DNA of 64,000 nucleotides from Pirellula sp. (GTDB taxonomy: Bacteria; Planctomycetota; Planctomycetia; Pirellulales; Pirellulaceae). Under the pieces are notes generated by a model that did not search any database, was not told where the DNA came from, and saw nothing but the letters and a program-made list of their open reading frames with translations. The position numbers were made by a program, and so were the translations under genes. The stretch is from positions 6,433-70,432 of the forward strand of contig JAIPFP010000002.1 of assembly GCA_021736575.1 (NCBI GenBank). Reading direction: 5' to 3'. Each line of letters opens with the position of its first letter. Position 1 is the first letter of the stretch. Shown one piece after another: positions 1 through 49,087 of this stretch.

Positions 1-3000
1 GTTGGGCAACATTGTCACGATCGCGCCCAAGGAGCTGGTCGCTTGAAACGTGCTGACCGAAAGGGCGTCGTTTGGTAAATCGACATCGCGATCATTTGTT
101 AGTACGCCCGGCGCACTGACCGTCAAAACAATGTCTTCACCCGTTGCATAAGAATCGTTAACGGCCACTGGAGCATCGTTGGCGGGTCGAATCACAACCG
201 TGATCAATTGAGGAGTCGACTGATTGACGTTTGGAGAAGTACTTGATCCATTGTCCCTAGCGAAGACACTTACGATAGCTGTGCCAAAAGCATCTTGAGC
301 TGGAACGAATTCCAAAACACCCGTGCCGCTAATGGTCGGTTGTACGGAGAACAGGCTTGGATTGTTGTTCGAGGTAAAGATCGAAACCGACTGTCCCGCT
401 TCGTCTAGCCCCGTTGGCGGCGTACTGTTCATGCCAGCAGCAGGAACAATGTTTCGGATCGCTGGAGCAGAGTATCGGTTCGAGTCTTCTGCTACCGATA
501 CATCGCCGATAACGATGAACCCCGGAGCATCATTCACAGGATTGGCTACGATCGTCAACTTGGAAGTGATCGAACGGTTTTGGTTTGGTGGGTTGCTTGC
601 GCCACTATCGACCGCAGTGACATCGACGATGGCTCGCCCGACCGCATCTTTTGCAAGAGAGAACGTCAGCACGCCAGTTGTGCTCACCGATGGCAGAACC
701 GAAAACAATGCGTCGTTATCTGTCGGTGTTTCGAAACGTAGAATCGTTTGTGTCGCGAGTTCGTCAAGCGCGCTTGGAGGTCCAGGCAGAATGCCCGTTG
801 CCCAATTGGCCGAGTAGGACGTAGTATCCTCGAGAACCGTGACATCGCTGCCAGGGATGAACTGGGGTGGGTTATTGATTGGGCCAACAGTAATGGTAAT
901 CGTCCCCGTCGCACTCTGTTGCGGCAGACCATTGTCGGAAACAACATATCGAATCAAATCGTTGCCCGAGAAATTGAGCGGGGTCTGATATCGGAACGAT
1001 ACAATTCGATCTCCAATAAAGACCGGCGTTACAATCCCGCCGTTGTCCGTTGTTCGTTCGACTTGGGTTATGCGAACGCGTTGACCCGCCGCGACTTCGT
1101 CGGCTGGACCGGCTACATCACCCGCCAGAACCACCGCTTCGGTTGCGTCAACAAATCCATTCTCAACTCCTTGCAATGTCAACGCATCCGGAATGGGCGG
1201 GTCATTTACGGGGTTGATGTTGACAGTGAATACTTGTTCAGCCGACATATTGACGTTGGGTGAGGGAGTGCCGAGCCCATTGTCGCGGAGAGAAACAAAC
1301 ACACGTCTCTGAATTCCAACCGTGTTATTATTAACGTCCTTGGCTGTTTGGAAAATCAAAGTCCCATCGCTTTGAAGCGTTGGCTGTACCAGGAAGGCAC
1401 TTGGGTTTTCCGCACGTACGTCAAAAGTTAGAACTTGAGTATTTTCATCGATAGCTGTGCCAGGGCCAGGTCGGATGCCCGTTGCAAACCCAGGGAGCGA
1501 AATCACGCCTTGGTCTTCATTCACAGTCGTCGAGGCTGGAATGGTGAACTCGGGTGCGTCATTGATTGCATTCAACGTAATCGTGAATGTGGCCGTTCTA
1601 CCCAAACTGTTATTGGGTGGTGGACCCGCTCGACCGTTGTCGCTCAGTCGAACAACCACCACGGCCGAACCGTTGCGATCCGGTGCAGTCTTGAACGAGA
1701 GTTTGCCCGTTCCATCGATGGTTGGTAGCTGAGAGAATAGCGTTGGATTGGATACCGAGATATTTACAAACGTGAGCACCTGTGCAGGCGTCGTCGGCGC
1801 AAAACTTCCGAACTCATCCAGCGCCGTTATGGGTCCAGGGAGCAAGTTGGATGCAAAACCCGGCACTTCAGTCAGTGTCGTGCCAGACAGGAATTCCTCG
1901 TCTTCCCTGGCTACGATATTGGTTGAATTTAGAACAAAGGTTGGCTGGTCGTTGATATCGGCGGCTGTGATCGTCAACGTCTTGGTAGTCGAAGCGGCCG
2001 TCGGTAGTCCATCATCGACAACCGTGATCAAGATATCCAAGCTACCCGAGAACAAACTATTCACGTCTGGAGCGAGTTGGAACTCCAGATCACCAGCCCC
2101 TGTCAACCTTGGTTGAAACGAGAAGTAGGCTGGATTGGCAGCAACGATCGTCGTGGTTAAGTTTTGGTTGATCTCGTCCACGGCGGTGACTGGACCCGGT
2201 GTCGGTGCAGACATAAAGCCCGGGATAATCGTCCTTGGAGCATCTTCTGTCGTGCTAAATGTGCTCGTCGACAGCGTGAACTCCGGTGGATCATTCACTG
2301 GAACCACATTGATCGTGATAAACTGCTTCGGCGATTGGAATTGATTGATGCCGCCTTGGGGTCCCAAGTCTTCCAAGTAGACCTCAACGACAATTGGGCC
2401 CGAGTTGAGGGCATTGACGTCAGGAGCAAGCCGGAACGTGAAGTCCCTACTGCTACCTGTTCCAACCACCCTTGGCTGCGTCGTGAAACTAGCCGGATTG
2501 AGAGCCCTTACCAAGAACCTCAGTCCCTGTCCGGTTACGCCTGGCACATTCCCAAGCTCGTCATCTGCACCCGTCGGTCCAGCTGCGATTTCAGTCACGA
2601 AATTGGTATACACTTGATCGGCCGGAGTCGGATCCTCCAAGAGCCCAATATTGGTTACCGGCAACGTGAACAGAGGTCGATCATTGACCGGGTTGATGTT
2701 CACCGTCAGGGTACTGAAGCTGGATTTCGGATCGGAGGAGGTTGGGAATCCACTCATGCCGTTGTCCTGGATCTCCAAAAGAATGAAGACAGGACCCTCG
2801 GTAAATTGGTTGTTGTAATGGGTGCCAGGCGTGTAGTTGACAATATTGCCCGTGACCGGTGGCAATAATTCGCCACTTCTGGGTGCTCGCACCGCACCTG
2901 TCGAATCAATCAACTGAGCCGACTTGACAATCAACGTTTGGCCCGACTCGTTGCCGGGACCTGGAAGATCATTGGCTGTAAACCGAACGCCTGCCCATGA

Positions 3001-5100
3001 TTGTGGGATATCCTCGTTGATGGTCTCGGTATCATTGGCAACCACGGGATTGTCATTGACCGGGTCAATGTTGATCGTGATGGTTTGAACCACGGTTTCA
3101 AACAAGTTGAGTCCACCCTGTGGGCCAGAATCTTGAGCAATGACCTCGACGAACAGACTGCCGTTCGGATTGGTGGCTGTGACGTAGTCCAGTCGATTGA
3201 CTTCTGGCTTGAGCTTGAATGTCAGGTCTCGACTGCTACCCGTGGCACCAATACTTGGCAGCGTCGCAAACGCGGTGTTGTACGGAGCGGGAGTGTTTAG
3301 GATGAACCTAACGGTCTGAGCTGGGACGGCTGGCGTAGGCAACATACTGCCCAAAAGCTCGTCGTCCGCAGAGCCTACTAGTCCAGGAATCAAAATCGGA
3401 CCTGCCGATACATTCGAAACGAAGTTAGGCACGACCACATCTTGACCTGCAGGGACAGGGTCTTCCAGCAACGAAACGGTCTGGGTCAACGGAAAGTCAA
3501 ACAACGGTCGATCGTTGACCGGCCGAATGTTGACCGTCAACGTACTGAACGAACTCTTCGGTGTCACAACGGGTGGGAACCCACTGACCCCATTGTCCTC
3601 AATTTCCAGTCGAATCAGCACAGGACCAGCAATGTCTTGGTTGTAATTGCTGCCTGGGGTGTAATTGACGACATTTCCGGAAACGGTTGGTAGCATTTCG
3701 CCAATTCTAGGTAAACGCACGGCGCCCGTCGAATCGATTAACTGGGCTGACTTGACGATCAACAATTGAGCGCGAGGGTCCGGCGAAAGGACGGACTCGT
3801 TGCCGGGACCCGGAACATCATTGGCAGTAAACCGAATGCCAGGCCATGATTGAACGATATCTTCGTCGATGGTCTCGGAATCATTGGTAACAACCGGATT
3901 GTCATTGATAGGGTCAATGTTGATCGTGATGGTTTGCACCACCGTTCTAAACAAATTGAGTCCCCCCTGAGGGCCGTTATCTTCCGCGATGACTTCGACG
4001 AAAAGACTGCCGCTTGGATTCGTGGCCGTCACGTAGTCCAAACGATTGACATCGGGCTTAAGCTTGAATGTCAGGTCGCGACTGCTGCCCATTGTGCCGA
4101 TACTTGGCAGCGTCTCAAACGCACTAGTGAAAGGAGCAAGCGTATTTAGGATGAACCTAACGGTCTGGGCTGGGACGATTGGCGTAGGCAATGTGCTGCC
4201 CAAAAGCTCGTCGTCCGCAGAGCCTACTAGTCCAGGAATCAAGATCGGACCTGCCGATACATTCGAAACGAAGTTAGGCACGACCACATCTTGACCTGCA
4301 GGGACAGGGTCTTCCAGCAAGGAAACGGTCTGGGTCAACGGAAAGTCAAACAACGGTCGATCGTTGACTGGCCGGATATTGACCGTCAACGTACTAAAGG
4401 CTGTCTTCGGATCAAGGGTTTGCGAGAAACCAGTGACTCCATTGTCTTCAATCTCAAGGCGAATAAAGACCCGACCAGCGATATCCTGGTTGTAATTGCT
4501 GCCTGGAGTGTAGCTGACGGTATTGCCAACCACGGCAGGAAGGAGTTCTCCAATCCCAGCTGCTCTTGGATTACCCGAGGCGTCGACAAGCTGGGCGGAT
4601 TTGACAATCAACGCCTGCGGATTTTCATTCGGAATCGCAGAGCCTGGCAATGGCAATGTAATTCCCTTGATGTCGTTTCCAGTAAACAGCGCACCAGGCC
4701 AACTTTGGACAATATCTTCGTCGATGGTTTGCGAGTCGTCGTTGGCAAACGGAACATCATTCACTGGGTTGACCGTAATCGTTACCGTTGCGGGTTGATT
4801 TCCGAGCAAGCGACGATCAGTCACTCGGTAGACAAACGTATCGGTCCCGAAGAAATTCGGAGCCGGCGTATAGGTAAACGAACCGTCCGCAAGCAGAACA
4901 AGCGTTCCATTTTGAGTGCTTGTCAGCGGCTGAATTCCGGACGCAAACGGATCCTCATCAAAGACGGATACGAGTGGCGGTGTCGTCGAAGGTGCAACGG
5001 GCGGATTGTCGGCATCTAGGTCATTGGTCAATACTCCATTTGCCGCCGTGACGAGAAGAACATTGTCTTCGTCAACACGATAGAGAGCTGCTTTGCTAGG
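1..5100 (-). repeat. Array of >=13 cadherin-like (VNDxP-delimited) domains in gene B, continuing beyond the window
   Basis: VND/IND/INN-x-P boundaries read on the minus strand near 190 (RPANDAPVAV), 540 (NPVNDAPGF), 885, 1215, 1565, 1955, 2300, 2690, 3060 (DPVNDNPVV), 3530, 3905, 4375 and 4765. Spacing is ~350-470 nt. Confidence 0.7.
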
Positions 5101-8100
5101 GTCTGGGTCATTGACAGCGACGGGTGGAATTCCAGCCAAAACTTCAATCACATGATCTTCGACTTCTCCACCGATAGCCAAACCGTAAGTAAACAATCCG
5201 CCCGTTGCGCTGAGTCTAAATCGAGCTGTGGTGTATCCCACGGTCGCGTTGAGTGGCGTGCTGATCAAGAAGGTGTTTTCGCCCGCGTTAACAGGCTCCG
5301 ACGACAGAATCTTTTCGCCTGCGTCCTCGAAATCATTATCTTGATTCCAGTCGACCCAAGCATCGATAAAGCCCGTATCGGTGGATGTGATGACAACGGG
5401 AACAGGCGGGATCAGAGGATTGAACAATCCATCAAATCGAACACCATCTTCGTCGTCGGCATTCACATTGACCGTGCCGCCCACCACCGTAGCCGTTGGC
5501 AGAGCAAGCGTGCCCTTCTGAATCTCACCATTGATTGCTTTGGCGACGTCGGCCGCAAAGCTGGCCTGCGTTGCGGTTGCGAAATTGATCACCAGCGGTA
5601 CGTTTCCAGCGATCAATGCCGACTGCACAGCTTGGTCGATAATTTGGAACGTAACCGAATTTCCTGAACCATCTTGAATGGTCAATACTTGACCGGCTGC
5701 GAGTCCAGTCAAGGTTGGGTTGACCGAAAGCCCTATCGATCCCTTCGGCACTCTTTGGACGAATCCGCCACTTTGACTCAAATCGAATGTGTGCCCAAAA
5801 GTACCACCAAGTGAAACAACGTTACCATTGACGATCGCGTAAATCTTAGTGATAGTACCGGCCAAGATGGACTTAAATATCTCGGACTGCAAGGCGGCGG
5901 CGGCACCATTGGCAGTTGTGACCAAGTTCAGGTCCACTCCAACAATGCCTGTCGGAACCGCACTCGCTGGAACGCTGCTGTCCCAAAACTGGTAAGTCAC
6001 CGTCCTATTGACGGTATCCGAAATCGTCACTCGCGTTCCCAACATTGCCGGCGCCGGAGCCGACACACTCAGTTGGGCAGGTCCCTTTGGCGACAGCGTC
6101 AATGGCATGCCAGCGGTAAACGCAAAACTGGAGCTGAAATCGTCGCCGTCCGCTGAGGTACTTGGCATACCGTCGACATCCCCATCCGCGAATTGCCCAA
6201 GGGCAAGGACCGGAACACCGGTCGGATAAAGTCCATGTCGAACACCATTATTGACAAGCAATGTGTTGCTGGTCGAACCTGTATTGGGCCGCTCCATCGC
6301 ATCGCCATAATCGACACTCACCTCAGGCATCAAGATGGTGAACTGAGTGAGTGAGTTGACCCGATTCGGCAACAGCCAATTCCCGGCTAAGTCACTAACG
6401 GGTCCAATCGAAGTAGTAGCCACTCCCGTAATACTCGTGACTCCTTCGACAATAAACGTGCCATAGCCAAGTGCATAGGCATTGACCCCTAGGCCAATAC
6501 TGCTGAAGGCTTTGACGAGTTGTGCCGAAACGCTGTTGTTGTTGAAACTGGATACAAACGGAACCGAAATCGCGCCGCCGGAAACCCCCGTTAAGAGTAG
6601 CCCTGAAGTCAACACATTTACGATGGAGCCTCTCGGTTCATTGAGCCTAATGAATCGAGTGGTCGTGGTTGGAGTTATTCCCAGTCCTGATCCAGCGATC
6701 GAAGTGCTTATTGCAACTGCGATTTGATCTGCGGTGTCCGTGTTGCGGATCGAGATGCCGCGATTGCCAGGGGTGATCGTCCCGTCCTTGTCAAATTCGA
6801 AGACAACGGTTTGACCAGCTGCGTTTCGAATCGAGAATCGCGTTGCGTCGGCGATGGCCGTACCACCCGCTGCAGGAACGGCCAACTCAAAGGAACCCGT
6901 CACACCCGGCGTGCCTATCACTCCCAACTGTGAACCTGTTACTGTCAACAAATCGCCAACTTGGCCACCGATTTGAACGGTGCCATCTTTCAGATCTTCG
7001 ACCGGTGCAAATCCTTTTGGAACCACGGTCGCCATCACGGCAGCAATCTTGCCCGCCAAGTCGATGTAGGTATCCGTTCGATCAAATGTTATGAGTCTAT
7101 TACCAGCCCCGAACGCAGTATCTCCCGTCAAGTTGAATTCAAGCGTGATGGCAGGTCCATTGGCGGGATCGAACATAAATGTCTGGCCGTCGGCAACTCC
7201 GGATGCCACCCCTTGCCTTGTCAGTCTAGAGGTCCCGACTGAGGCGTTATGGACTGCAAGCGTTCCCAAATGAATGAGATCTGTTCCATAACCTTTGACC
7301 CCCAGATTGAGATCGGCATTCGTGGCCGATCTGAGCGCCGCCACAATAGCGTCTCGGACTTGGGTTGCCGTTTGGTCCGCGATGATCGCGATGGGGCGAT
7401 TACCGGCTGTTACCAAATTGTTGGTGTCAAACTCAAAGGTCACATTGAGAGCGCCGTTCGAGATTTGGAATGTTTGGCCATCGGTAATGCCAGCGGAGGC
7501 CGAGCCTGCGGCTGGCACTTTAAACGTGAGCGTTTGCGGCACAGTGAGCTTAAAGCCGCTATCGAATTCCAAAACGGCTTGTGCACCGTTGCTGGCGTTG
7601 ACCATAACGCGGGCACCATCCAAGATCGTTGCACCGCTGGTTGGATCAACGCGCAGGGTCGGCTTATTGATCAGCGTCATTTCATAAATGCTGTCGCGCC
7701 TCCAGAAGCCAGCAAGTGGTGTAAGGCGAATGGTACGGCTGTTGGCACTAAAACCAAAAATGTAGTCCACACCTTGTACCAAAGGTCTGCCGTTCTCGGT
7801 CAAGATCAACGAATCCGCGGTGATCGTGTTTGGGTCCGTTCCCGTTCCGGTCCGTTCATCCAGCAGAATTTCAAAGAAATCGTAGTTACCGGTTCTGAGC
7901 CGAACATACGTATTGAATGGATCGGTGTCGAGCTGATTGGAATCATTGTCCAACGGCCGTTGTAAAACGGCAATCGGCCCGACAAAGTCCACGCGATCCG
8001 TGGCACCTCTGTCGATGAAGACGTTCTGACCGAGCCCGAATGGAGGGCTCACCGCAGGATCGTCGCTGCGTCGCAGGCCATTGACATCAAAGGCTGGGGC

Positions 8101-17973: not shown

Positions 17974-18082
17974 GTTGGATAAACCTTGGAGACTTTGCAG
18001 ACTTAAAAATGAAAATGGGGTTGATTTAGAATTAATTGGAGCGGGCACCTCTGTCGAGATGCCACTCCGTATTAGTTTGGAT

Positions 18083-30000: not shown

Positions 30001-33000
30001 GCTCGATAACCGTGTCTAGATTTGTCTTGGTATAGTCGACATCCAGCCAAACCTCAGTCCCTGCTTCGGCCGAAAAACTGTAGATATCCACGTCCTCATC
30101 TTGGCTCAGCACACCCTGGATCACGAAGCCCAGCCGGAGGTTTTCGCTACCCGACGAGGCGGTGGCAGCCAAGCTTCCAAGGCCTTGCGCCGTGCGAATC
30201 GAACCATTCGTGCCAGGGGCCGCAGCCGAAATATCCTCGGTTTCCAATACGAGTCCAACATTGCGATCGTTGGAGTACTGATCAAGCAATACACCGCGCC
30301 AATCGGAACTGCTTGGAACAGAACCAATACCATCATTATTCGTGTCGTTTTGCGATCGTCCGTCCGGACGCAAGCCTGCTCCGACGGTATCATCCTTCAA
30401 GCTCGTCAAGATCACCGGGAAGCCTGGTTGGCCCACCAGGTGCAACGTGCCGCCGACTCGATTGTTGCCCGGCATCAACTGGCCATTGCCGGTGATTCCC
30501 GCGCCCATGTTGCGATTGTAGTTCGAACCATATCCATCGAACTTGACGACCAGCGATTCATCGGTGGCGCTCTGCAAGCGCAAGCCCCCCTCGTGCTGAT
30601 AGTCCCCAACAAAGATCCCATCATACACAGCGTGAACAATGTCGGTATCGTCCCATACGCTGGCGTTGGTCAAGGTATCTCCGCGGATCTTCAAACCGTT
30701 AAGGCCGTTATTCGCGAATCGGTTTTCGCGAATCAATGGACCTTGGTTCGTAGAATAAATTGGATTGATGTCAACATCTCCAGTCTGCCTTCCCGAATCC
30801 GGCATCACATGATCATTCATGCTGTTCGCATCGATATCAATCGCAGCGCCGATGTTGTTCCGGAACACATTGCCAAGGATCGTTGGCTGCGTCCCACGGA
30901 CGAATATCGTAGCTGGCTCGTTGAGCAATCGACCGAATCGAGTTCCCGGCCCCTGACCACCAAAACCATCGGCGTTGTTTTCGAAAACCGAATGCGCGAT
31001 GCGTGCATCGGCTTGTTGAAGTTCAATTGTATTAAAGGCTCGGAACGTACCGTCCAACCTGGTCACACCTCCAGCGAAAGCAAAAGTCGAATGGTCGACG
31101 CTCAGAGATGCAGTTGGCGCGACGTAAATGCCACCCCAATCGCGTGCTGCCGGAAGAGTGCTCGTCCCGTTATTGTTGGTGTCAAACGTACCGCCAGCAC
31201 CGTACCGATCATCCAACTTGCTAGTAAAGATAATCGGCAAATCCTCGGTACCTTCGGCGATGATGCGAGTACCAAAGGTAGCCTCAATACGCGAGCCTTC
31301 CAACTTCAAAACGCTACCCGGATCGATCACCAAGGATGAATTTAAACGAGGTCGCTTGACAGCCAGTGACTCAGGCGAAAGCGCGGCACCCGTAACGAAA
31401 CCATTGTCCGTCAGCGAGGCGAGGTTGGACATCGTTGCGTTCGGCAACTCGGCGATCAACGAATAAGGTCCCGAGCCATTGTTCGCGCTTCGATAGACGC
31501 GTCGGGCCACATAACCCGGAATAGGTTGCGGCAGTTGCGTTAACACAACCGATTGACCAATTGGTATGACAATGTCGTTGGTCGGATTGGATGCAAGCCC
31601 TTCTTGTCCAGCCGCGTCGACCATTACGAAGCGGTAATTGTATCGGCCGGCGGCCAATGTCCCACCCGCGGAATTTGCAAGCAAAACCCCAGACACATCC
31701 AAGCGATCACGAGCCAGCGTGCCCCCCAAGGACTTGCCAATATCCAAGTATGTCGATGTTGCCTTGTCCAGCAACGCAATCAATTCGTACGCTCCCGTTA
31801 AGCTTACACTGCTGCGGTACAATCGGCGAGTCACAAAATCGCCTGTTGCAGACGGCAAACTGGATAACGCAATCGCGGTCTGATTCCCAACCAGAGTGAT
31901 GCTTCCCGTGGCATTGGAAGGAACGCTCTCGCTTCCATTTCGGTCGACAAACGTGAGCTTATAATTATAGATGTCTGGCAAAAGCGTTCCGCCGACCCCA
32001 GGTGCCACGGAGACCAAATCCGAAGCGGGCGTGAAACCGTCAAGAATCGAACCACCTGGCGCACCAGAGAGAATCAAGTTATCGGCAAAAACATGAACGA
32101 TGTCGATGTCGTCGAATCGCCCCGGAACAGTAAGTGTCTTCGGTGACCCGTCTACGGGCGTATCGACGCGGATGAACAACCCATTGAGCGAGTTATTGGT
32201 CAACGTGTTATGGTGGATATCTGGTCCCACTCGATCATAATCGCTGGTAAACGCGCCGCTCAGTTGGAATCTCGGTTCGTTGAAATTCGTTTCTTCGAAA
32301 CTGTTTGGAAGCGCGCTCATCGCAGCATCGGCGCTACGTGTGATTCGATTGTAAGTAATCGTTGGACGCGTTTCGAACATTTGGATTGCGTTGATGGTTT
32401 GAGCAACCCCGTCAACCACAACGCTGCCGCCGCCGTATCGTATGTCGGCATTATTGACATACTGAAGGAAAATCCCTTCGTCCTCACCATCGCGCCGACC
32501 CGAAGCGACGTCGACATCCCGTCGAAACGAAATCCCACCCCAATCCCCTGCACCGGGGATCGTTCTTGGTCCATACGTATCGAGGCCAATCGTTTCATCC
32601 AGCCAAGAGGTGAAGTAAACGCTTCCGGGGGCAACACCACCCGTAGCTTGCTTAAGCATGTTTCCGCTAGCGTCGAGCAAAGACGGCGCACCCAGAACTT
32701 GCAATGCAGCCCCGGATCGATTGACGTTCAAGCTAGAGCTACCGACACCCAGCCTCGCACTTCTAATTTTGAAAATTGCCCCCGCATCGATCATCGTGGT
32801 GACCCCCATCGGGACATCCATCGTCAAACCATCTGCGAGAACGGCTCCCGGCAAGAGACCAATTCCAATCTCGTACGCAACGTTGTCGCCAATTGTTTCC
32901 AGTCTGCCGTCGCTACCTCCGTTGCCGGCGATTCGCACGATATCACCTGGCAAGGCCGAGGCAAACGCGTTGGGGACTCCAGCCCCAGCAATATTGTTAA

Positions 33001-36000
33001 ACGGACGTTGCAAGCTGCCGTCCGCGTTCGGACCTGCGGATTTGTCAACGAAAATGTTCTTGCCGACCACGTCAATCAAACGCAACGCGGGATCGACGGT
33101 TATCGATCGCTCGCCTTGCAATACGATGCCGCTGCCATTCACTGTTGCACTGACTCCCAACGCGGCTTGAGAGGCAATCGCACTGGCTAACGCGTTCGCC
33201 AAATCAGTCGAAGTATTGCCGTTCACGTAGGGGATTCGGATGCGTCCAGGACTGACGAAGTTGTCGCTCGAGAACTCGAAAACGCGTGTAACTCCATTCG
33301 AGCCCACGACGGTAACGATCCTGCTCTCGATTGCCGCAGATCCTCCCGCGTTGAAGTTCAGTGTTCGATTGAGCGGACGGGTTTCGAACCAGAAATTATA
33401 GGTTCCACCCGCGACTCCATCCCCGTCGCCATCGAATCCGACCGATGGGTCGCTCTGCGCGTTCGTCGAAACGTCTTGAATCGCGTCATTGACGCCGACT
33501 TGCCCACGGAACGTGAGCCGCATTTCGTATTTGCCTTGCGATTGACCGCCGAAACCGGTCCCAGGAATGGCCGCGTTGTAGTCGTCATTGCCGCTAGCGC
33601 TTACACCAACAAAATAGACCCCGCTGGTAAGCGATACTTTGATCAGCGAATCGCGGCTGAAGTAGTCATCGTTCCGTGAAACCAAATCCATCTTTCCGCC
33701 CGAAAGAATGATCGGATTTTGGGTCAACAGATTTCCGCCAACCTTGGTGCTACCCATTCCCTTGGCCAATTTGACTGTGACCAAATGGCTTGCCTCGCTC
33801 GAACTCTGAATCGCCGCGATGATCTCATCGACCGTGCTCTCACTGCCAGGCGTCGCGTTCAGATCGATCCCGATCGCATTCGGATACACCGAAATCGATG
33901 GTGCTCCATCTCGCACGCTTTGAGTCAGGTAAATTTGAAACTGATTTCCCTGGCTACCTGGTCGTACTGCGGTGAACTCAACCGACAATAGATTGCTTAC
34001 ACCAAAGTTGGTAGAACCCGTTGCTTGTGTTTGTTTGTACAGCTGCAGATTCGTGTCCAACTCGCTGCTGTTGGCGAGACGCTGCGCGTACGTTTCAAGT
34101 GTGAACAAGCCCGCTCGACTGGGGTCACCCAAATCCACTTCGAAACGATACAAATCGATATCCGAACCGTCCGGTCGATGCAAGTACTGACCGTGGAGGA
34201 CGTCTTGATTGCCTGGAAAAATTGGCTCAAAACGTTCTTCACTTGCAACCAGTTGTGCGTCGTTCGGATTGATCGTTGGACCGGTACCAGCAAAGAACGT
34301 CGGATCCAATCGCATGAGCGTACTTTGAGGTAGATCGCCTGCATGCTCAAGGCCGAGAACCATGCCAATGCATGCCATCGTCGATCGGAAATAATCCTCT
34401 CCGTACGAATTATTCCATGCGCGAGTGGCTTCCAAAATGATCAATGAGCTGGCAAACGTCTTGTCGATCCGCACACCGAAATTAATCGTATCGTTGAGTC
34501 CGACTTGAATCGCTTCCGTCTGAATCTGAGTGGCTGCGACCGGCGTCAACCCACTCAACGAGCCCAACGCGATCGTCACACCTTGATCCGCCGTTTCCAC
34601 GAACTGAACTCCGATCTTGTAAGCCCATAAATTGAGGGCTTCACGCGTTCGGCCTTTTTGCTCTTCGGTGATCGAGTTAACTAAGGGATTGTTTAAGTTG
34701 TCGTTCGAGTAAATCGTCTTGAAGTTGTAATAGATCGTTGTGATTCCAGCCGTCGGATCTGCTCCGAAGGCTGCGTTGACGTGATTCTCGAAACTGCCTT
34801 GTAGATTCTGAGGCAACGTTCGATGAGCCGGGTCATCACTGGCACCCTCCAAGTCGAGCGCGAACGGCTCTGCATCGATCGAGGACGATAGAATCAGACT
34901 GCTCTGAAGCAGATTCGTAGACCCAATCAACCCCAAATTGGTTGCTGTGTTGAACGAACTCCCCAGCCCAAACAAAGTGACCGGCGAATAGCTCAGCAAT
35001 CGATCGCCAATAACCGTCAACGGGTCACTGCCTGGCTCGTAGTCGATGCTCACCAAACTTGTTGCGGCCGGCACGAGCAGGATGGCATCCACCACCTCTT
35101 TCGCCGTAACAGTTGACGTCCCTAAATCCACTGTGATCTTACGACCAACGACCGAGACAGCCGGCGAACTTCCATTGAGCGAGTTCACGAACTCGACCTG
35201 TACTCCACTGCCCGCTTCACCGATTTGATTGGCTGTGAATCGAACTTTGACTGCACCTGCCGTGTTGAAATCCGTGATGGCGTTGGCGGCCGCTTCGTTC
35301 CTGGTCGGCGCAAGAGGCTGCGTCTCGCGAGTCCCGATTCGCAAACGGTACGTGACTGGACCAGCACCGGAACCCGGAAGCGTATCCAAGTCGCTAGCAA
35401 AGACAAGAGTTGCCGTGTTGGAGGCTGCATTGTAGCGCACCGAAATGGGCTTGAACGCCGCTCCATCATCCGTGTTTCGGATTGTATCCCTTGTGAAGAT
35501 CAATTGATAGAAATCTGGGTTCTCAACCGATCGTGACGTCGGACGACCTTGAGCGTCATTTTCAACCAACAGCTTTTCTTTGTCGAAGTAGACGACGATG
35601 GTGTCGCGTTGCTGACTCAACTGTCCATTCTGACGCACAACCGGTTGAGGTACGACCGAAATCACTTGCGGTCCGAGATCCAACCGGAAATCAATCGTAT
35701 CGGATCGGGTATTGGGCTTCGACGGAATCAGCAGGTTTCCTGGCAGACCATTCTCACCCACATTTCGCAACCCAACGATACCTAATGTCGGGTCGTCAAA
35801 ACCAAAGACTTCGATGCGATATTGATCATCGATCAAATTCTCTGCGAACCGTACTGTGACTTCGTTCTCGTCTGGATTTTCGCCAACACTTCGTGCGCCC
35901 GGTTGGACGATGATGTCGTTGGTTTGCGTTAATCGAATGGGCGAGTAAGAGGTAGGATTCCCAGAGCTCAGCAGCGTAGCCTCCAGCCCCCCGTTTATCT

Positions 36001-36553
36001 TGGCCCGGATCTGAGTATTGATCGCAGGTGTGGTATTAATTGCATCTACCAATTGCTTCGCGGTAGTGCTTGGCGCTAAAGTCACCGAGATAATGCTGTT
36101 CGTGATCGAGAGAGCAAAACTTGCGCCTCGAGTCACGTTCACATCGAAGGCGGCTCCCTGGGCAACCGAACTGAGCTGTATGTCGACTTTCCCAAGCGTT
36201 CCAAAATCGCTCGAAGCGCTAGCTAAACCGAAGGAGCCGTCACCTCCGGACCGCGTGATGCGAATGCCGCTGAGTGTATTTGCATCGATGATCTGAGAAT
36301 CATCGAACCGGAACGTGAGCTCCCTCGGAGCGATGCTGCGCACCACGCCATTCTCAATCAAATCACTATTATTCGGCTGAATTCCAATCAACCGAGGACC
36401 TACACCTGTAGCCAACATTTGCCGAGACTCTAGGGTTTCAAGCAGGCAGCGACGGAGTTTGGCCCGTTTTGCTTCGCTTGATACAGCGTCTTGAGGAGCA
36501 ATGGATCTGATGGAAAAACTCTTGTTGCGAAGCCGGCGGATGGTCATCACCAA
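18083..36553 (-). CDS. Giant secreted mosaic protein, paralog A (6156 codons): export motif, M10-like pseudo-peptidase, PPC domains, beta-helix blocks, embedded I9-S8 subtilisin, FEF-module array, GEVED, cadherin-like array, dockerin
   Basis: Single uninterrupted ORF in the track. The track start is TTG at 36553. An in-frame ATG at 36547 has GAGGG 6 nt upstream and is the more likely start. Motifs are listed in the sub-features below. Confidence 0.95.
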   Translation of the reverse strand: MVMTIRRLRNKSFSIRSIAPQDAVSSEAKRAKLRRCLLETLESRQMLATGVGPRLIGIQPNNSDLIENGVVRSIAPRELTFRFDDSQIIDANTLSGIRITRSGGDGSFGLASASSDFGTLGKVDIQLSSVAQGAAFDVNVTRGASFALSITNSIISVTLAPSTTAKQLVDAINTTPAINTQIRAKINGGLEATLLSSGNPTSYSPIRLTQTNDIIVQPGARSVGENPDENEVTVRFAENLIDDQYRIEVFGFDDPTLGIVGLRNVGENGLPGNLLIPSKPNTRSDTIDFRLDLGPQVISVVPQPVVRQNGQLSQQRDTIVVYFDKEKLLVENDAQGRPTSRSVENPDFYQLIFTRDTIRNTDDGAAFKPISVRYNAASNTATLVFASDLDTLPGSGAGPVTYRLRIGTRETQPLAPTRNEAAANAITDFNTAGAVKVRFTANQIGEAGSGVQVEFVNSLNGSSPAVSVVGRKITVDLGTSTVTAKEVVDAILLVPAATSLVSIDYEPGSDPLTVIGDRLLSYSPVTLFGLGSSFNTATNLGLIGSTNLLQSSLILSSSIDAEPFALDLEGASDDPAHRTLPQNLQGSFENHVNAAFGADPTAGITTIYYNFKTIYSNDNLNNPLVNSITEEQKGRTREALNLWAYKIGVQFVETADQGVTIALGSLSGLTPVAATQIQTEAIQVGLNDTINFGVRIDKTFASSLIILEATRAWNNSYGEDYFRSTMACIGMVLGLEHAGDLPQSTLMRLDPTFFAGTGPTINPNDAQLVASEERFEPIFPGNQDVLHGQYLHRPDGSDIDLYRFEVDLGDPSRAGLFTLETYAQRLANSSELDTNLQLYKQTQATGSTNFGVSNLLSVEFTAVRPGSQGNQFQIYLTQSVRDGAPSISVYPNAIGIDLNATPGSESTVDEIIAAIQSSSEASHLVTVKLAKGMGSTKVGGNLLTQNPIILSGGKMDLVSRNDDYFSRDSLIKVSLTSGVYFVGVSASGNDDYNAAIPGTGFGGQSQGKYEMRLTFRGQVGVNDAIQDVSTNAQSDPSVGFDGDGDGVAGGTYNFWFETRPLNRTLNFNAGGSAAIESRIVTVVGSNGVTRVFEFSSDNFVSPGRIRIPYVNGNTSTDLANALASAIASQAALGVSATVNGSGIVLQGERSITVDPALRLIDVVGKNIFVDKSAGPNADGSLQRPFNNIAGAGVPNAFASALPGDIVRIAGNGGSDGRLETIGDNVAYEIGIGLLPGAVLADGLTMDVPMGVTTMIDAGAIFKIRSARLGVGSSSLNVNRSGAALQVLGAPSLLDASGNMLKQATGGVAPGSVYFTSWLDETIGLDTYGPRTIPGAGDWGGISFRRDVDVASGRRDGEDEGIFLQYVNNADIRYGGGSVVVDGVAQTINAIQMFETRPTITYNRITRSADAAMSALPNSFEETNFNEPRFQLSGAFTSDYDRVGPDIHHNTLTNNSLNGLFIRVDTPVDGSPKTLTVPGRFDDIDIVHVFADNLILSGAPGGSILDGFTPASDLVSVAPGVGGTLLPDIYNYKLTFVDRNGSESVPSNATGSITLVGNQTAIALSSLPSATGDFVTRRLYRSSVSLTGAYELIALLDKATSTYLDIGKSLGGTLARDRLDVSGVLLANSAGGTLAAGRYNYRFVMVDAAGQEGLASNPTNDIVIPIGQSVVLTQLPQPIPGYVARRVYRSANNGSGPYSLIAELPNATMSNLASLTDNGFVTGAALSPESLAVKRPRLNSSLVIDPGSVLKLEGSRIEATFGTRIIAEGTEDLPIIFTSKLDDRYGAGGTFDTNNNGTSTLPAARDWGGIYVAPTASLSVDHSTFAFAGGVTRLDGTFRAFNTIELQQADARIAHSVFENNADGFGGQGPGTRFGRLLNEPATIFVRGTQPTILGNVFRNNIGAAIDIDANSMNDHVMPDSGRQTGDVDINPIYSTNQGPLIRENRFANNGLNGLKIRGDTLTNASVWDDTDIVHAVYDGIFVGDYQHEGGLRLQSATDESLVVKFDGYGSNYNRNMGAGITGNGQLMPGNNRVGGTLHLVGQPGFPVILTSLKDDTVGAGLRPDGRSQNDTNNDGIGSVPSSSDWRGVLLDQYSNDRNVGLVLETEDISAAAPGTNGSIRTAQGLGSLAATASSGSENLRLGFVIQGVLSQDEDVDIYSFSAEAGTEVWLDVDYTKTNLDTVIELLDANGTLLARSDNSTEETLVPALLVRSPLIDPSSVNPLPVRTTNVRTNRSGLVKEDGTTNVRDAGMRIVLPGSIGARGTFYFRLRSAGTDIANEKAGLSSGPYQAQLRLREQQEFAGSLVSYTDIRYSTNGVHLRGLPTSSPLIGEAAEDESVEYVDSANNFRTNSNAELTAYNGTAVGQLTVGNRPQYIGNLLNTANGGISLAGSLSTNTDVDFYRLDIRQQDIVGSMSGGFASVMFDMDYADGLNRPDTSINVFIEENSLRFGKQYRLIYSGDSSNIADDQARPLLVNDASDLSRGSLGTKDASIGPVALAEGTYLVAISSAGYQPRTRIINQFNTEPISSILRIVDEDFVAGATTALPPVIRNFLPQPNASIGPTGELISKVFNLGAYSAADQPATYIDYDFPGGNFSISIRDSAGVETEVARSQFGGTLQTGTNSLKIPLNQFAGQDGLTMIFRSTQAATTITNVIIGFAERGERVGTPDEPVLSPGMNLFGDFNATPPGPLSQNSTRTFSLATYTFADGPRVAFDYEVFTGQLDVFMQSPFGLQRIATTDNVNRPGNVVLLTAGSPQRASIDVSQYAGQAGLSVVFRSRGDANGRVRIGAVTMELADGSRIFSGEPNPTFVNVPVPSTTITRGAYQLEVRLGENFFTSNSSGTPTLTKTFDTNDRFTEQISIVAPAGTNLTDGDVFEISDGGTRIGFEFSVDNVVASGNVPVRFTPADPAYVVARAIRDAINNPNVQSRLRVSAATSSGIATGTTGRDTRINLIGNAAVKQVTSAKPAGMVQVISYSGIGDRNVTRDQGQLIVQNSFIRNSRDYAIWSEPAARMADPRDTEDAGNTFGFNGGNFGGFNLVDDIQAKPSLAGTQAVRNLPALNNSVPGGLVSGVVIQNNVLEEGGLGGVKINGENPIWMITPQLIPTADNNPLVNSDAPVTHFGTYIDDGDVLVIDSDRTRLRFEFDDLAGGPAGAGGSTQVEGNGVALDSTIAWYRDLGGSFYQRLTCTNCQPFATNAFETMHALRDSILGSIFVSNGTTQIIQATIAQSLLGPDPGAPPSSAGNFYPEYFNRASLYLEGPTALEFVDGPGGFSNRLDIRRLPLGESPQPQTRIVNNTIIGKDGRASFNGGAAAAETNDTLDTAVQTWQGTSHNPLFYSDVGIIGDSGVGIAGNNPATGNGGGGTGGSFNFTLANLSSNRFVMRFEDGVTPERQAAIMAAEGLEIIQRYDFINALLVRKTKNVLTVDGLQRLVAMPEIRYAEPDMDMQFDRVPNDPQYPQQWQYDNQGQTGGKIDADIDAPEAWDLVTGSTQTVIAIIDSGVDYNHTDLRANMWVNPGEIAGDGIDNDANGYIDDIYGIDPFSGDSDPLDQNGHGTHVAGTTAAVGNNGRGVTGVNWNSKIMALKIGAAGPSVSFLAAIESLNYLVTMKTKYGINIVVSNNSYGGPGFSQAFQDAVQATIDVGIAFVAAAGNNGTNNDQQPFYPVGFPLDGIIAVAATDDRDQLANFSNFGVTTVDIAAPGVNILSTTLGGGYGLQSGTSMASPHVAGVVALLASSLPGASVAQLKSAVLLGAHPLPNLTGVVLSGARLNAAKSVFVLNAGLGKLLSTSDVDIYQFKLGIGERAIIDIDSANSGLDSVLQIFDSRGVPQTFLNANGISLLASDNDAAPGELVSLDSYADFTATAPGVYYAAVSSVGNSTYDPLSLANRKAGKTTGAYRVTLSARHQQDFVITAEDASAYRAGETFTIHGVPDLDGQVTTGRTFEFTFGIGGQVAQGNIPINLNPGWRFPDVARAIAKAINEGLAGGPAVSNAQRLPNGQFGTASPLPAVHARAMGGLANIVDADFNSIVGDKAPLIERLGQLDELGTDAVSPREIRRQLGGDYTEVNQGLRVFTRRLDGFITFTTTVVNNLPPFLSVTSLSNMGFGHDRLSTTPISLTSIGDGTSEKFVVVKNAAWITGNNTVIVSPDENEGNNLDSLLPETGILASRGASPTILNNVFFNLQSPVIKEESRRYPVVGPFTGGFAPYGFDGETVVSKPSEVILGGSVYQFDEPAASKVRFTTGIEKVPTNIPNTALDFNFDVADSARLFVNAQAGQYLPAAGSILIDSGIDSLPERPLFANVKKSVGISVSPVIAPDRDAVGQLRVDDPTVSPPSGLGQNVFKDRGALDRADFLGPTAVLVNPLDNDALGVDKDSAVSVVQLTSGVYSEFRIQLRDSDETFGGIGVNDDSVVTPEVSGVRAVGASVVLFENGRLLVEGIDYRFAYDTTRNEIILTPLAGVWKNDRVYDILLNNKDRFVLVAPSGDTIQDGDRMVIRDSLGGNVNFEFESGYRLQIPQGLKIQVPLAGGQAGGVVDGDRFTITQGTLQVTFELDNNSNFLAGNIPVVFSKTSSREEIANTIAAAIQKTALAVKPVVQPGGNVYLGAAANTRVNTALSALTQPIQTDGLLVPNLGAGVGGVTDGQLVSISDGRVAIVFEFDTDGRFDPANFRIDSSQASNANDIANLLVQSIVASGLKLQPRIMGSDVVHLGLSPSGSVNLLNSKLSLVGVSRTIADGEQFTISFGGITKTFEFTLDPDTNVKPGNIPISFKQTDTQDQLGALVALTIKNAGLNLDPKHIDDGNIAIGGTEQHSINATTAPSIGLFGKPGVATNTTLTIVGSLLLEVPPIVGQDLQDNTFLTLTNNGVTLLIEFDGNSSGSTVPNSVVVRFNPSSTVPNIVQAMINVINASGLGLVAKSVGGPFIDLGPVPDSTVVSNTSAIRQSRSSVDDGQYFSINNGTTTVTFEFENATNNNGFTAGRVPIFFRSSSTRREVIDAMKAAIEASGLGLQTQVISDSVLKLLDNPQYTLVNNGTSIEVSGVPGGATPILFLQDVVFTAELMRDSIIKAINSAPNTSLFAKKRGGSTLFVENAISIDSPVPNFFQRAIEDLAGNDLQPNRINNETQFSILMPGAQLDFGDAPDPVSTTPGRYPTSQAFDGARHVSNATALRLGTDISAEQDGNPTPKADGDSGDDGVTFKFQGLDKPLFNRNVDTLVTVTLSAPGIVDGWIDFNADGDWTDPGENVLNGVIFDPSSLTQTFSIRVPTTSPVPAVSTNSFARFRTSSAGELLPTGLALDGEVEDYLVRVVPGVPPIGVSDAYAMNEDQVGGLVTSDPTGQATPGFVVDDGVLANDTSPDGRALFARLLTPPQHVSGNSFVFNSDGTFSYQPTADYFGTDTFVYLNYVNLDVNENEILESLVPTTVTITIRPVNDVPTASNFSRDTDEDVPLILTQPNIVTLSQALAGPANEFEQTLRVSLPNNVTGQGGSVSLLNGGVIYTPRADFSGVDTFAFTLTDNGVTGDLADPLSVTRTVTVTVRDKNDAPITTPKSFTMIEDGTDTKPSSFFLAGDVAGPPSEITGPNAQTLTFSGVVATSEFGGTVSFANGNVTYRPAPDFNGVDRFFYFVTDNGTSQGISDPLTSRGTVTVTVTAVDDAPRVVAQFGTVNMLEDDPERAFPLANYFFDPDVIPNDDKLTYKVVSNSNSSLVEPTFGANDIFVRPKPDQNGTAIIVFEATDRAGNTVTNTMTLIVAPVGDSPRLVAPLPNLSVAEDAIIPDTVLSPTYFYDPDVILNGDVLTFTVTNSNTDVVTASIVNGSLRLVLVPDASGVATITVRAVDKAGNAIEDSFDISVSPVNDAPRAVDDLFYLTPQGVELRTTDARGTATPSIYDDGVLANDRDIEGNTFTARVTRAPTLGQLTLNLDGTFSYIPNSNTLVGAVDTFKYQAVDSLGAVSNEATVKITITTPPASKHQNPIQKLDVDADGFISPIDVLLIINFLNFRGEPSVSIVGLPDPPPYRDVNGDYFISPLDVLEVINYINRRSSGGSAGGEGEGDGSSVSYVSGNLGAPMTWSTDVMRNTPNTGTTMVDVPSRNRMENAVQPARQDAIAAQGASLGEYLSSFGNDAEDEAEQLAVLSTAKSSKEDHESLDSFFAEVFGQ
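18440..18635 (-). other. Type-I dockerin (two EF-hand-like repeats) near the C-terminus of gene A, followed by a ~115-aa Gly/acidic tail
   Basis: LDVDADGFISPIDVLLIINFLN and RDVNGDYFISPLDVLEVINYINR. The tail is SSGGSAGGEGEGDGSS...EDEAEQLAVL...DSFFAEVFGQ. Confidence 0.75.
18650..20560 (-). repeat. Five cadherin-like (VNDxP-delimited) ~105-aa domains at the C-terminal end of gene A
   Basis: Domain boundaries are RPVNDVPTA (~20270), DKNDAPIT (~19935), AVDDAPRV (~19600), PVGDSPRL (~19295) and PVNDAPRAVDD (~18985). Internal motifs include DGTFSYQPTADYFGTDTF and VLANDxD. Confidence 0.75.
20640..21160 (-). other. GEVED-type domain of gene A
   Basis: LDFGDAPDP...GRYPTS...DGARHV...GWIDFNADGDWTDPGE...ARFRTSS...GLALDGEVEDYLVRV (GEVED at about 20650-20665). 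Confidence 0.7.
21510..23110 (-). repeat. Contiguous array of ~6 copies of an uncharacterised ~95-110-aa 'FEF module' in gene A
   Basis: Cores: IQDGDRMVIRDSLGGNVNFEFE; VVDGDRFTITQGTLQVTFELD..GNIPVVF..EEIANTIAAAI; VTDGQLVSISDGRVAIVFEFD; IADGEQFTISFGGITKTFEFT..GNIPISF; LQDNTFLTLTNNGVTLLIEFD; VDDGQYFSINNGTTTVTFEFE..GRVPIFF..EVIDAMKAAI. Dispersed copies sit near 24600-24800, 27000-27180, 27700-27950 and 33150-33330. Confidence 0.75.
24880..25230 (-). other. Pre-peptidase C-terminal (PPC) domain following the S8 domain
   Basis: SDVDIYQFKLGIGERAIIDIDSANSGLDSVLQIFDSRG...ASDNDAAPGE...GVYYAAVSS...GAYRVTLSA. Similar PPC-type signatures in gene A sit near 34160 (DIDLYRFEV), 30100 (DVDIYSFSAEAGTEVWLDVDY) and 29370 (DVDFYRLDI). 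Gene B has them near 16260 (DLYKFVV) and 13220 (DIDIYRFTGTAGSMVWFDVD). Confidence 0.65.
25290..26090 (-). other. Peptidase S8 (subtilisin) domain inside gene A with an intact catalytic triad
   Basis: VIAIIDSGVD (Asp3499, codon 26057-26059); DQNGHGTHVAGT (His3554, codon 25892-25894); GTSMASPHVAG (Ser3720, codon 25394-25396). There is also an NNSYGG oxyanion-region motif. Numbering follows the track protein. Confidence 0.9.
26215..26425 (-). other. Inhibitor I9-like subtilisin propeptide inside gene A
   Basis: SSNRFVMRFEDGVTPERQAAIMAAEGLEIIQRYDFINALLVRKTKNVLTVDGLQRLVAMPEIRYAEPDMDM lies immediately upstream of the S8 domain. The call rests on position and pattern only. Confidence 0.55.
30450..33050 (-). 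other. Two parallel beta-helix (PbH1-like) blocks of gene A separated by two ~85-aa 'Y-N-Y...RR-x-YRS' modules
   Basis: Motifs GDIVRIAGNGG, DIHHNTLTNNSLNGLFIRVD, FENNADGFGG, FRNNIGAAIDIDANS and IRENRFANNGLNGLKIRGD. Between them lie LLPDIYNYKLTFVDRNG...RRLYRSS and LAAGRYNYRFVMVDAAG...RRVYRSAN. Coordinates are approximate. Confidence 0.6.
34270..34900 (-). other. Serralysin/matrixin (M10)-like domain of gene A with a degenerate zinc-binding motif
   Basis: ...ITEEQKGRTREALNLWAYKIGVQFVETADQGVTIALG... is followed by TMACIGMVLGLEHAGD (about 34334-34381), at the place where metzincins have HExxHxxGxxH. Only the last His is retained. Confidence 0.55.
36410..36442 (-). other. N-terminal LExRxLxA-type motif of gene A (LETLESRQMLA), Planctomycete extracellular / LEPR-XLL-type signature
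   Basis: Residues 38-48 of the track protein follow a basic stretch (RRLRNK...KRAKLRR). The pattern matches from memory the conserved N-terminal motif of Planctomycete exported giant proteins. Confidence 0.6.
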
Positions 36554-36930
36554 CCCTCAGTGCAAAGGTAGCCAGGAACTCCTTGCGAAATGAAATACCT
36601 CGCAAGGCTGTAAAATTGTGTCCCGACCAACCAAACATTAAGGCTAAAAAACAACCCTAAGAATCTGGCAGTCGGAATAACACTCAGTTTCGAGTATAGT
36701 TGGGCTGGATTTGGATGCAAACTTGTGCCCACCCCATACGCAACAACGAACATGGAATTCGAACCGAAACCACCCTAAAGAATGGGTCGGATCCTCCCCA
36801 GCACATCGAAAAACGATGAAGATTTTACCAAAACTAGCTAACTACACTGGTCAATTGCAGCTCAACGCGACGGATTTGCGGCCTTTGACGTCCCTTTGGA
36901 TGTTGAACGCTTGGAAAGGTTCCAAGCCTC

Positions 36931-37449: not shown

Positions 37450-37485
37450 TTTACTGGACTGCGTCTGTCACGATGCATAGAAGCA

Positions 37486-37908: not shown

Positions 37909-37941
37909 TGAAGCGATAAAGCGATAATCGGAAAACCTAAC

Positions 37942-49078: not shown

Positions 49079-49087
49079 ACTTGAAAC

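Follow-up and report, generated by a model that had tools for sequence, protein, structure and literature searches.

Genes A and B are two giant genes that follow one another on the minus strand of a 64,000-nucleotide stretch of DNA from a freshwater Pirellula (Planctomycetota). This whole stretch is called the window here, and all coordinates are positions within it; the two genes occupy its leftmost 36.5 kb. On balance we favour the view that A and B encode co-expressed, paralogous giant proteins of a planctomycete class that act as Ca2+-dependent surface fibres or adhesins, and we would call this view modestly probable. A and B are ancient tandem paralogs, and their planctomycete-specific family would be one of megadalton cell-surface proteins. 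The pair is laid out as follows:

18083-36553, minus strand: gene A, a single open reading frame (ORF) of 6,156 codons counted from the listed TTG
17974-18082, minus strand: spacer between A and B, 109 bp
1-17973, minus strand: gene B, starting at the ATG at 17973, with 5,991 stop-free codons and truncated by the left edge of the window

The product of A is approximately 6,155 amino acid residues (aa) long with a mass of 650 kDa, and the codons of B inside the window account for at least 628 kDa. Since the full-length A ortholog P0268 opens with MTIRRLRNK, the ATG at 36547 is a likelier start for A than the TTG at 36553. Both chains are acidic (computed isoelectric points of 4.5 for A and 4.4 for B) and nearly free of cysteine, with 4 Cys in the 6,156 aa of A and 1 in the 5,991 aa of B. 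The sole Cys of B (Cys28, 17892-17894) and one of the four of A (Cys36, 36446-36448) sit in the N-terminal export motif described below. No convincing transmembrane segment was found in either protein; the top 19-residue hydropathy is about 1.6, and these peaks are located within the S8 core of A and directly past FEF modules of B. A promoter and terminator scan saw no terminator-like hairpin on the coding (minus) strand of the spacer, and A and B are probably co-transcribed.

The original prediction, made from the DNA letters, was of a tandem pair of mosaic paralogs 109 bp apart, and the pairwise BLASTP comparison bore this out. It returned 17 high-scoring segment pairs (HSPs), ten of them collinear and outside the cadherin-like region, at 25-43% identity and with E values down to 9e-174. 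A dot-plot without collinearity beyond the cadherin repeats had been named as an argument against the pairing; what BLASTP showed instead was collinearity. The ten collinear HSPs, in residue numbers and all on the minus strand, are:

A32-116 with B22-106
A213-427 with B106-310
A541-841 with B321-610
A953-1019 with B614-680
A1165-1636 with B729-1187
A1620-2552 with B1052-2000
A2776-3112 with B2809-3168
A4161-4795 with B3174-3768
A5192-5555 with B4175-4555
A5421-5899 with B5462-5965

Because this series runs through non-cadherin regions, the collinearity exceeds what generic repeats would give. The two proteins differ by the insertion of whole modules, some of them nested within other domains. 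A and B are true mosaic paralogs, old tandem duplicates that have been kept next to each other.

Domain content was established by Pfam and NCBIfam scans on overlapping 700-aa pieces of both proteins, and repeats were counted with profiles built on the window sequences. Common to A and B are PPC domains, a weak right-handed beta-helix signal, GEVED and repeats of the Cadherin_4, Cadherin_5, Big_9 and tandem-95 types, so that Pfam recovered the shared blocks that had been predicted (the export motif below threshold and the beta-helix weakly). The C-terminal part of A reached 135 bits against NF012211 (tandem-95), for which the cut-off is 90. Multiple repeats in tandem, each about 95-110 aa as in tandem-95 and bacterial cadherin-like proteins (NF012211, PF17803, PF17892, PF17963), are present in both genes. 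Within the window, the Pfam matches confined to A are Peptidase_S8 (E = 1.3e-43) and Dockerin_1 (E = 5.6e-11), both as predicted for this gene. Ten unannotated segments of A and B matched essentially nothing in Pfam at E <= 1. We propose that the modules run, from the N-terminus, as Ig-like domains, metzincin-like domain, PPC, beta-helix, FEF modules, GEVED-type domain, cadherin-like stalk, dockerin with two Ca2+ loops and acidic tail, and that chain length would come chiefly from the beta-helix, the small alpha/beta modules and the cadherin-like repeats. The blocks in which A and B are best compared are:

33509-34162, minus strand: PPC of A, hosting the third VxFTA module
15946-16266, minus strand: first PPC of B, contiguous, without a nested module
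30164-33106, minus strand: right-handed beta-helix region of A, where conservation with B is highest (39-43% identity)
10804-11916, minus strand: B-only segment (B aa about 2020-2390), part of a module of about 400 aa and absent from A
20642-21154, minus strand: GEVED-type domain of A, contiguous (DFGDAP...GEVED)
5146-6315, minus strand: split GEVED-type domain of B, with its N-half at 6130-6315 and its C-half at 5146-5457
18650-20461, minus strand: cadherin-like / tandem-95 repeats of A, 6 repeats
1-4932, minus strand: cadherin-like repeats of B, 13 in the window

Most of the module differences read from the sequence at first sight were upheld. The stretch of B near 11040-11340 for which no counterpart in A had been noticed is indeed absent from A and belongs to the module of about 400 aa, which is common to other relatives; the B-only segment is shared by P0029, P0033, P0046, P0071 and P0088. 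The GEVED-type domain of B is split, as had been proposed, by an insert of 224 aa (5458-6129) that holds most of one FEF module (aa 4091-4175). For the cadherin-like repeats, the count of 13 in B within the window stood, and that for A was corrected from 5 to 6 with the in-house profile. The beta-helix region of A carries, at 31300-32100 (aa about 1490-1750), two inserted modules in tandem, each about 90 aa long and of the pattern GGTLxxGxYxYxxxxVDxxGxES...RRxYRS, and these YxYxV-type modules are missing in some relatives, such as P0050.

Two small modules recur through the pair. The FEF module (about 80 aa) is present in 8 copies in A and 5 in B, and the VxFTA module (about 95 aa) in 3 copies in A and none in B:

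21479-22957, minus strand: FEF array of A, five modules (aa 4533-5025)
33104-33319, minus strand: single FEF copy of A
27713-27946, minus strand: single FEF copy of A
24578-24796, minus strand: single FEF copy of A
8950-9201, minus strand: FEF copy of B
7252-7488, minus strand: FEF copy of B
6958-7197, minus strand: FEF copy of B
6628-6855, minus strand: FEF copy of B
5449-5703, minus strand: FEF copy of B
35924-36184, minus strand: VxFTA copy 1 (A aa 124-210)
34967-35254, minus strand: VxFTA copy 2 (A aa 434-529)
33689-34027, minus strand (33698-33991 in the module list): VxFTA copy 3 (A aa 843-955), nested in a PPC loop

The FEF consensus is DGxxxxIxxxxGxxxxFEFDxxxxxxxGNxxIxxxxxxTxxxxAxxxxxAI, and an AlphaFold2 model from the repeat alignment (predicted local distance difference test score, pLDDT, 85) consists of a beta-hairpin, a strand, a helix and two short strands. 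An exhaustive profile search for FEF gave at least 2,878 representative proteins with E <= 1e-3, nearly every one a giant, of which 336 have E <= 1e-30; most of the top matches are 2-8 thousand residues long, with up to 25 copies. For VxFTA, profiles and alignment confirmed the three copies in A and the nesting of the third in a PPC loop whose counterpart in B is uninterrupted. The module occupies three conserved positions in A-lineage proteins, was found in 52 of 240 proteins (family relatives and S8 matches together) and was modelled by AlphaFold2 with a pLDDT of 84. Neither module corresponds to a Pfam family, and a Foldseek search of the PDB gave no fold match for either model better than E = 0.9. 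FEF and VxFTA are therefore candidates for curation as new domain families.

The metzincin (M10)-like region lies at equivalent places in the two proteins, and in both its active site is degenerate:

34184-34786, minus strand: metzincin-like pseudo-peptidase of A, with the site ACIGMVLGLEH at 34343-34378
16294-16896, minus strand: metzincin-like pseudo-peptidase of B, with the site HEIGQSLGLDN at 16399-16434

Among the relatives found with A aa 1100-2600, homologs aligned at this site carry an intact HEIGHLLGLGH and some of them match Peptidase_M10. Two or three of the zinc ligands have been lost in A and B, and the catalytic Glu has also been lost in A. Neither protein has an M10 or NF038122 match at E <= 1 in Pfam and NCBIfam, and the region aligns with homologs that bear PF00413. 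The site is likewise degenerate in the four A orthologs examined (L001, L002, L018 and L020) and in the B ortholog L019. Of the 150 best giant proteins from the FEF profile search, 82 bear the metzincin-like region and 27 of these keep HExxHxxGxxH. The degenerate sites confirm the M10-like pseudo-peptidase that had been suggested for both genes, and loss of catalysis appears to be the rule in the family. Since the zinc ligands are lost, the domain is likely to be a binding or structural module, not a protease, and the conserved core of A and B would be non-catalytic. Some fragments of family members are named 'peptidase, partial' or 'matrixin family metalloprotease' at NCBI, which is misleading where the site is degenerate.

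The active-looking peptidase of A is of a different kind and lies in a variable cassette:

25193-26521, minus strand: variable S8 cassette of A (aa 3345-3787), comprising a Gly-rich linker, a propeptide-like segment and a deseasin-like subtilase
26045-26062, minus strand: Asp motif of the S8 triad
25874-25894, minus strand: His motif of the S8 triad
25382-25402, minus strand: Ser motif of the S8 triad
24932-25186, minus strand: PPC after the S8 cassette, present also in S8-less orthologs

All four subtilase motifs are present (IDSGVD at aa 3498, HGTHVAG at aa 3554, NNSYGG at aa 3620 and GTSMASP at aa 3718), and the closest relative is the collagenolytic deseasin MCP-01 (PDB 3vv3), matched over the entire catalytic domain at E = 6e-95. 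The segment of about 70 aa before the catalytic domain (FVMRFEDG...EPDMDMQ) has no Pfam match in A and a weak PF22148 match in the ortholog fragment P0124. The cassette is missing in the A orthologs L001, L002, L018 and P0268; the alignment of these four to A skips from aa about 3339-3353 to about 3788-3790, with 2-14 residues between. Since the S8-less orthologs keep the PPC that follows, this PPC is ancestral and part of the host protein, not of the cassette. At the A-equivalent position the cassette is found in L020 and P0253. A neighbour-joining tree of the A core, with B as outgroup, has the form ((window, L001), L020), L018, L002, and, set against the S8 distribution, it implies no fewer events than one gain plus one loss, or else two gains at a single site. 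Deseasin-like S8 domains of the same type (52-63% identical) also occupy three other positions in other family members: directly before an intact metzincin domain in L021 (9944-11026), between the equivalents of A2547 and A2846 in P0316 (aa 2498-2881) and between the equivalents of A2075 and A2079 in P0276 (aa 1846-2263). By this distribution the S8 cassette is an optional accessory, shuffled in frame, and does not define what sets A apart from B. This payload, lying outside the conserved core, might process the fibre or digest a substrate.

The two ends of the proteins are of interest for export and anchoring:

36410-36454, minus strand: export motif of A, RRCLLETLESRQMLA (aa 34-48), PF07595 at 19.7 bits
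17860-17907, minus strand: export motif of B, FRTLICENLERRDLMA (aa 23-38), PF07595 at 17.0 bits
18437-18631, minus strand: dockerin of A (Dockerin_1 E = 5.6e-11, in 2 stretches), with both Ca-loop motifs intact, DVDADGFISPID and DVNGDYFISPLD
18086-18436, minus strand: acidic C-terminal tail of A, about 115 aa past the dockerin, ending in ...SLDSFFAEVFGQ

Both N-terminal motifs match the consensus RRLxxExLExRxLLA, a proposed export signal peculiar to planctomycetes (PMC8567305). In Tuwongella immobilis the motif is found on 8 of the 10 longest proteins, and several motif-bearing proteins of that species were found solely in the sodium dodecyl sulfate (SDS)-soluble envelope fraction (PMC8567305). 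The first 125 aa of A and B contain no Sec-type hydrophobic segment, the Kyte-Doolittle maximum over a 15-residue window being 0.76 in both. Since neither protein has such a segment, export via the RRLxxExLExRxLLA-type motif is most likely.

The C-terminus of B lies beyond the window and was followed in its orthologs. The closest of these, L003 from a Pirellula metagenome-assembled genome, shows 92% protein and 89% DNA identity when the last 500 residues of B are used as query, and it extends 1,257 nt past window base 1. The extension holds 3 cadherin-like repeats, an A-like dockerin, a GEGEGEG linker and an acidic tail ending in ...LDSVFADEDWM; in its recovered portion (the last 4,491 aa) L003 has 16 cadherin-like repeats. 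Nine more B orthologs, making ten in all, share the dockerin and acidic-tail ending. The apparent lack of a dockerin in B is therefore an artefact of the window edge, and full-length B is predicted to have about 6,409 aa, of which about 418 lie past the window, with a terminal dockerin. Family-wide, the dockerin is followed by a GEGEG linker and then by about 100 aa of weakly conserved acidic tail with a short amphipathic end motif, of which SLDSFFAEVF, LDSIFADE, AIDEAFGDLI and ALDDLFG are examples. Linker and tail were located in A (18086-18436), in L003 (about 12950-13483) and in P0253, P0268, P0362, P0346, P0359, P0297 and others. The amphipathic end could be a C-terminal sorting or secretion signal.

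The related proteins from the first homolog database reach about 2,600 aa at most, i.e. they are fragments, and the full-length relatives, of 5.7-6.8 thousand residues, come from a representative library. The orthologous giant genes in the public metagenome-assembled and long-read assemblies of L001, L002, L020 and L021 are split into 3-5 gene calls. A followed by B is found in at least two other Pirellulaceae genomes, and a second gene of paralog type in two more, so the pair, which a check in relatives might have found always unlinked, is linked. In GCA_046349795.1 (L002/L019) the order is A then B with a spacer of 104 bp. The second gene there, L019, is 41-46% identical to B, as against 30-43% for A versus B, and since it is closer to B than B is to A it is taken to be a true B ortholog. 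On contig JAPLNL010000038.1 (L018 and L013) the A ortholog ends at about 101.4 kb and the B ortholog at 120.3 kb, an interval that fits one gene only. In GCA_036704275.1 (L001) the gene 149 bp past the A ortholog is a family member that matches M10 and beta-helix, and in ERZ25039603 contig_27568 (L020), which is fragmented by frameshifts, a family member lies about 670 bp past it. The genes flanking the pair vary between genomes. The possibility that a third giant gene belongs to the unit was rejected: the genes past B are convergent (L003, L011), and upstream of A there is a 1.4-kb gap followed by a divergent DnaJ-like gene.

Between the window B and its L003 ortholog the ratio of nonsynonymous to synonymous substitution rates (dN/dS) is 0.11 over 4,052 codons and 0.07-0.12 in each 500-codon bin, i.e. 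B is under purifying selection. The synonymous rate (dS) over window 1-12250 against L003 ranges from 0.21 to 0.76 per 500 codons, a more than threefold variation, with dN/dS steady near 0.1; this unevenness along B may reflect intragenic recombination. The persistence of the pair and these ratios show that both its linkage and its coding capacity are under selection. The conservation of the tandem linkage across genera argues for a functional couple, and the products of A and B are most likely joint components of a Ca2+-dependent fibrillar adhesin or surface matrix.

The gap upstream of A (36554-37941, 1.4 kb) has a G+C content of about 0.50, as compared with 0.52-0.54 elsewhere, and its longest ORFs are 172 and 140 aa. 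It presumably houses the promoter and regulatory region of the pair. No Rfam families or tRNAs were found across the whole window, this gap included. Farther along, the window holds two DUF1501 + PSD1/PSCyt2 (DUF1553/DUF1549) pairs, at 39559-42719 and 47660-51625, which are unrelated to A and B. They are typical planctomycete paralog pairs, and one of them has a planctomycete cytochrome c domain.

Several observations weigh against the reading of A and B as co-expressed surface fibres or adhesins. The PF07595 scores of 19.7 bits (A) and 17.0 bits (B) fall under the gathering threshold of 25.5, and about two thirds of each protein has no curated-family match even at E <= 1. No sequence relative was found in the PDB with the first 5,000 residues of B as query, and neither a cohesin nor any other partner for the dockerin turned up in A, in B or in a scan of ten of the larger neighbouring ORFs. 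B orthology of the second gene has been demonstrated for L019 and the L013/L018 contig only, the second genes next to L001 and L020 being assigned at the level of family membership. Furthermore, the beta-helix could be catalytic (lyase-like) instead of structural. In one alternative, A and B are giant secreted or tethered degradative enzymes, with a lyase- or hydrolase-like beta-helix, S8 where present, and the cadherin, PPC and GEVED domains as substrate-binding modules and spacers, in the manner of a 'planctosome'. The weak Beta_helix matches in both proteins, the kinship of the S8 domain with collagenolytic deseasin MCP-01 and the dockerins are all consistent with it, as are the InterPro-based guesses of glycosyl hydrolase and pectin lyase for similar Stieleria giants (PMC7717043) and the hypothesis, raised for other Planctomycetes, of a cohesin/dockerin 'planctosome' that degrades peptides (PMC6461901). 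We nevertheless judge it rather unlikely: no carbohydrate-active or lyase family reached threshold in A or B, in both lineages the sole ancestral peptidase domain is inactive, the S8 cassette is dispensable, and the scan of A, B and the ten neighbouring ORFs was without a cohesin. It is also unlikely, if a shade less so, that A and B are redundant or alternative adhesins, two variants of different specificity that do not co-assemble and are adjacent merely from tandem duplication. The same architecture with sequences diverged to 25-43% identity, the differing module sets and the 6 versus 16 cadherin-like repeats would fit such variants, but the linkage persists where A orthologs are just 54-65% identical and the flanks change, which outlasts the usual passive adjacency, and the spacers are short in three genomes (104, 109 and 149 bp).

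The original prediction went on to propose a division of labour, with B as a passive scaffold or adhesin and A as a processing and anchoring partner by virtue of its protease and dockerin. The part of this that stood is that, in this genome, S8 with an intact triad is found in A alone. The pair is also conserved in tandem, with consistent lineage differences, the three VxFTA modules being confined to A and the aa 2000-2400 module to B. The part that did not stand is the dockerin, since B orthologs share the dockerin and tail ending of A. In addition, the S8-less A orthologs L001, L002 and that of the L018 contig keep their tandem partner (P0268 has no genomic context), and the nearest A ortholog of known S8 status in the tree, L001, is without S8. 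The proposed split between scaffold and partner is undercut by these findings, and we regard it as improbable. Only slightly better odds, though still poor ones, would be given to a stronger form of joint function, in which A and B make an obligate heteromeric megadalton fibre that serves as a platform for catalytic payload cassettes such as S8, put in and taken out in frame and partly nested within existing domains, and is exported by a planctomycete-specific non-Sec route reading both the N-terminal motif and the dockerin/GEGEG/acidic tail ending (S/A)(L/I/V)Dx(F/L)(F/L). That the genes are non-functional relics, or artefacts of assembly or annotation, is very hard to credit. Many database relatives are fragmented or labelled 'partial', but here two unbroken ORFs of about 18 kb each are present, full-length relatives of 5.7-6.8 thousand residues exist and dN/dS along B is 0.11. 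The pseudogene reading was rejected on the open frames and dN/dS, and the concern that B might meet stops just past the window edge is answered by its 5,991 codons without a stop and by an ortholog that continues to the dockerin.

RTX adhesins secreted by type I systems (of the LapA, MpIBP and SiiE type) are megadalton, acidic, nearly Cys-free proteins with no Sec signal. Their chains contain extended Ca2+-dependent repeat arrays of Ig- or cadherin-like type and a module that binds Ca2+, and their C-terminal tails are acidic. A and B resemble them in size, acidity, low Cys content, absence of a Sec signal, repeats, Ca2+ module and tail. Unlike in RTX adhesins, the Ca2+ module of A and B is a dockerin and the N-terminal motif is planctomycete-specific. 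Membership in the RTX/type I secretion system (T1SS) adhesins was rejected, there being no HemolysinCabind/RTX match in A or B; no T1SS genes (ATP-binding cassette transporter, membrane fusion protein or TolC) were seen among the ten larger neighbouring ORFs scanned.

The closer likeness is to the planctomycetal giants that have been catalogued (PMC8567305, PMC11573180, PMC7717043). Planctomycetota are the main source of huge proteins with Big_9, cadherin and dockerin domains (PMC11573180), and in Stieleria varia three adjacent giant genes, Pla52n_17480 to 17500, one of them a 'Matrixin' of 6,858 aa, have been tabulated without further analysis (PMC7717043). A and B share with this class a length above 5,000 aa, the N-terminal Studholme motif (PF07595, Planc_extracel) without a hydrophobic segment, Cadherin_4, Cadherin_5 and Big_9 repeats, a C-terminal dockerin and a planctomycetal host. 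They belong to it and are no new system. The catalogued proteins are undissected and uncharacterised; new with respect to the catalogue are the conserved A-then-B paralog pair, the metzincin inactivation in both lineages, the nested insertions and the movable S8 cassette.

Single parts of A and B also recall other known proteins. As in many secreted peptidases, a PPC follows the metzincin-like domain. Relatives match metzincin/matrixin (Peptidase_M10, PF00413) or bear the NCBI names 'NF038122 family metalloprotease' and 'DVUA0089 family protein', but the A and B sites are short of two or three zinc ligands and both proteins stay under every M10 and NF038122 threshold. The S8 domain shares with deseasin MCP-01-type subtilases (S8A; 3vv3) the motifs around Asp, His, Ser and the oxyanion Asn, and in A, too, S8 is followed by a PPC. 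Deseasin is a free secreted protease, whereas the S8 of A is internal to a 650-kDa protein, about 3,400 residues from its N-terminus. With the cellulosome and the hypothesised 'planctosome' (PMC6461901), A and the B orthologs have in common a type I dockerin (PF00404) with two Ca2+-loop motifs at the C-terminus. They differ from both in that the scan of A, B and neighbouring ORFs revealed no cohesin, no carbohydrate-active module is present and a tail of about 115 aa runs on past the dockerin.

Since the metzincin site is degenerate in two thirds of the sampled family members, 'metalloprotease' annotations in this family mislead. The S8 cassette, with its several positions and its clean junctions where it is missing, is a tidy case of in-frame domain shuffling in very long genes. 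A two-gene unit that is conserved across genera amid changing surroundings is a rational target for knockout and localisation in a cultivable Pirellula or Rhodopirellula. Planctomycetes spend tens of kilobases on giant surface proteins, and this locus provides a clean handle on what such proteins do.

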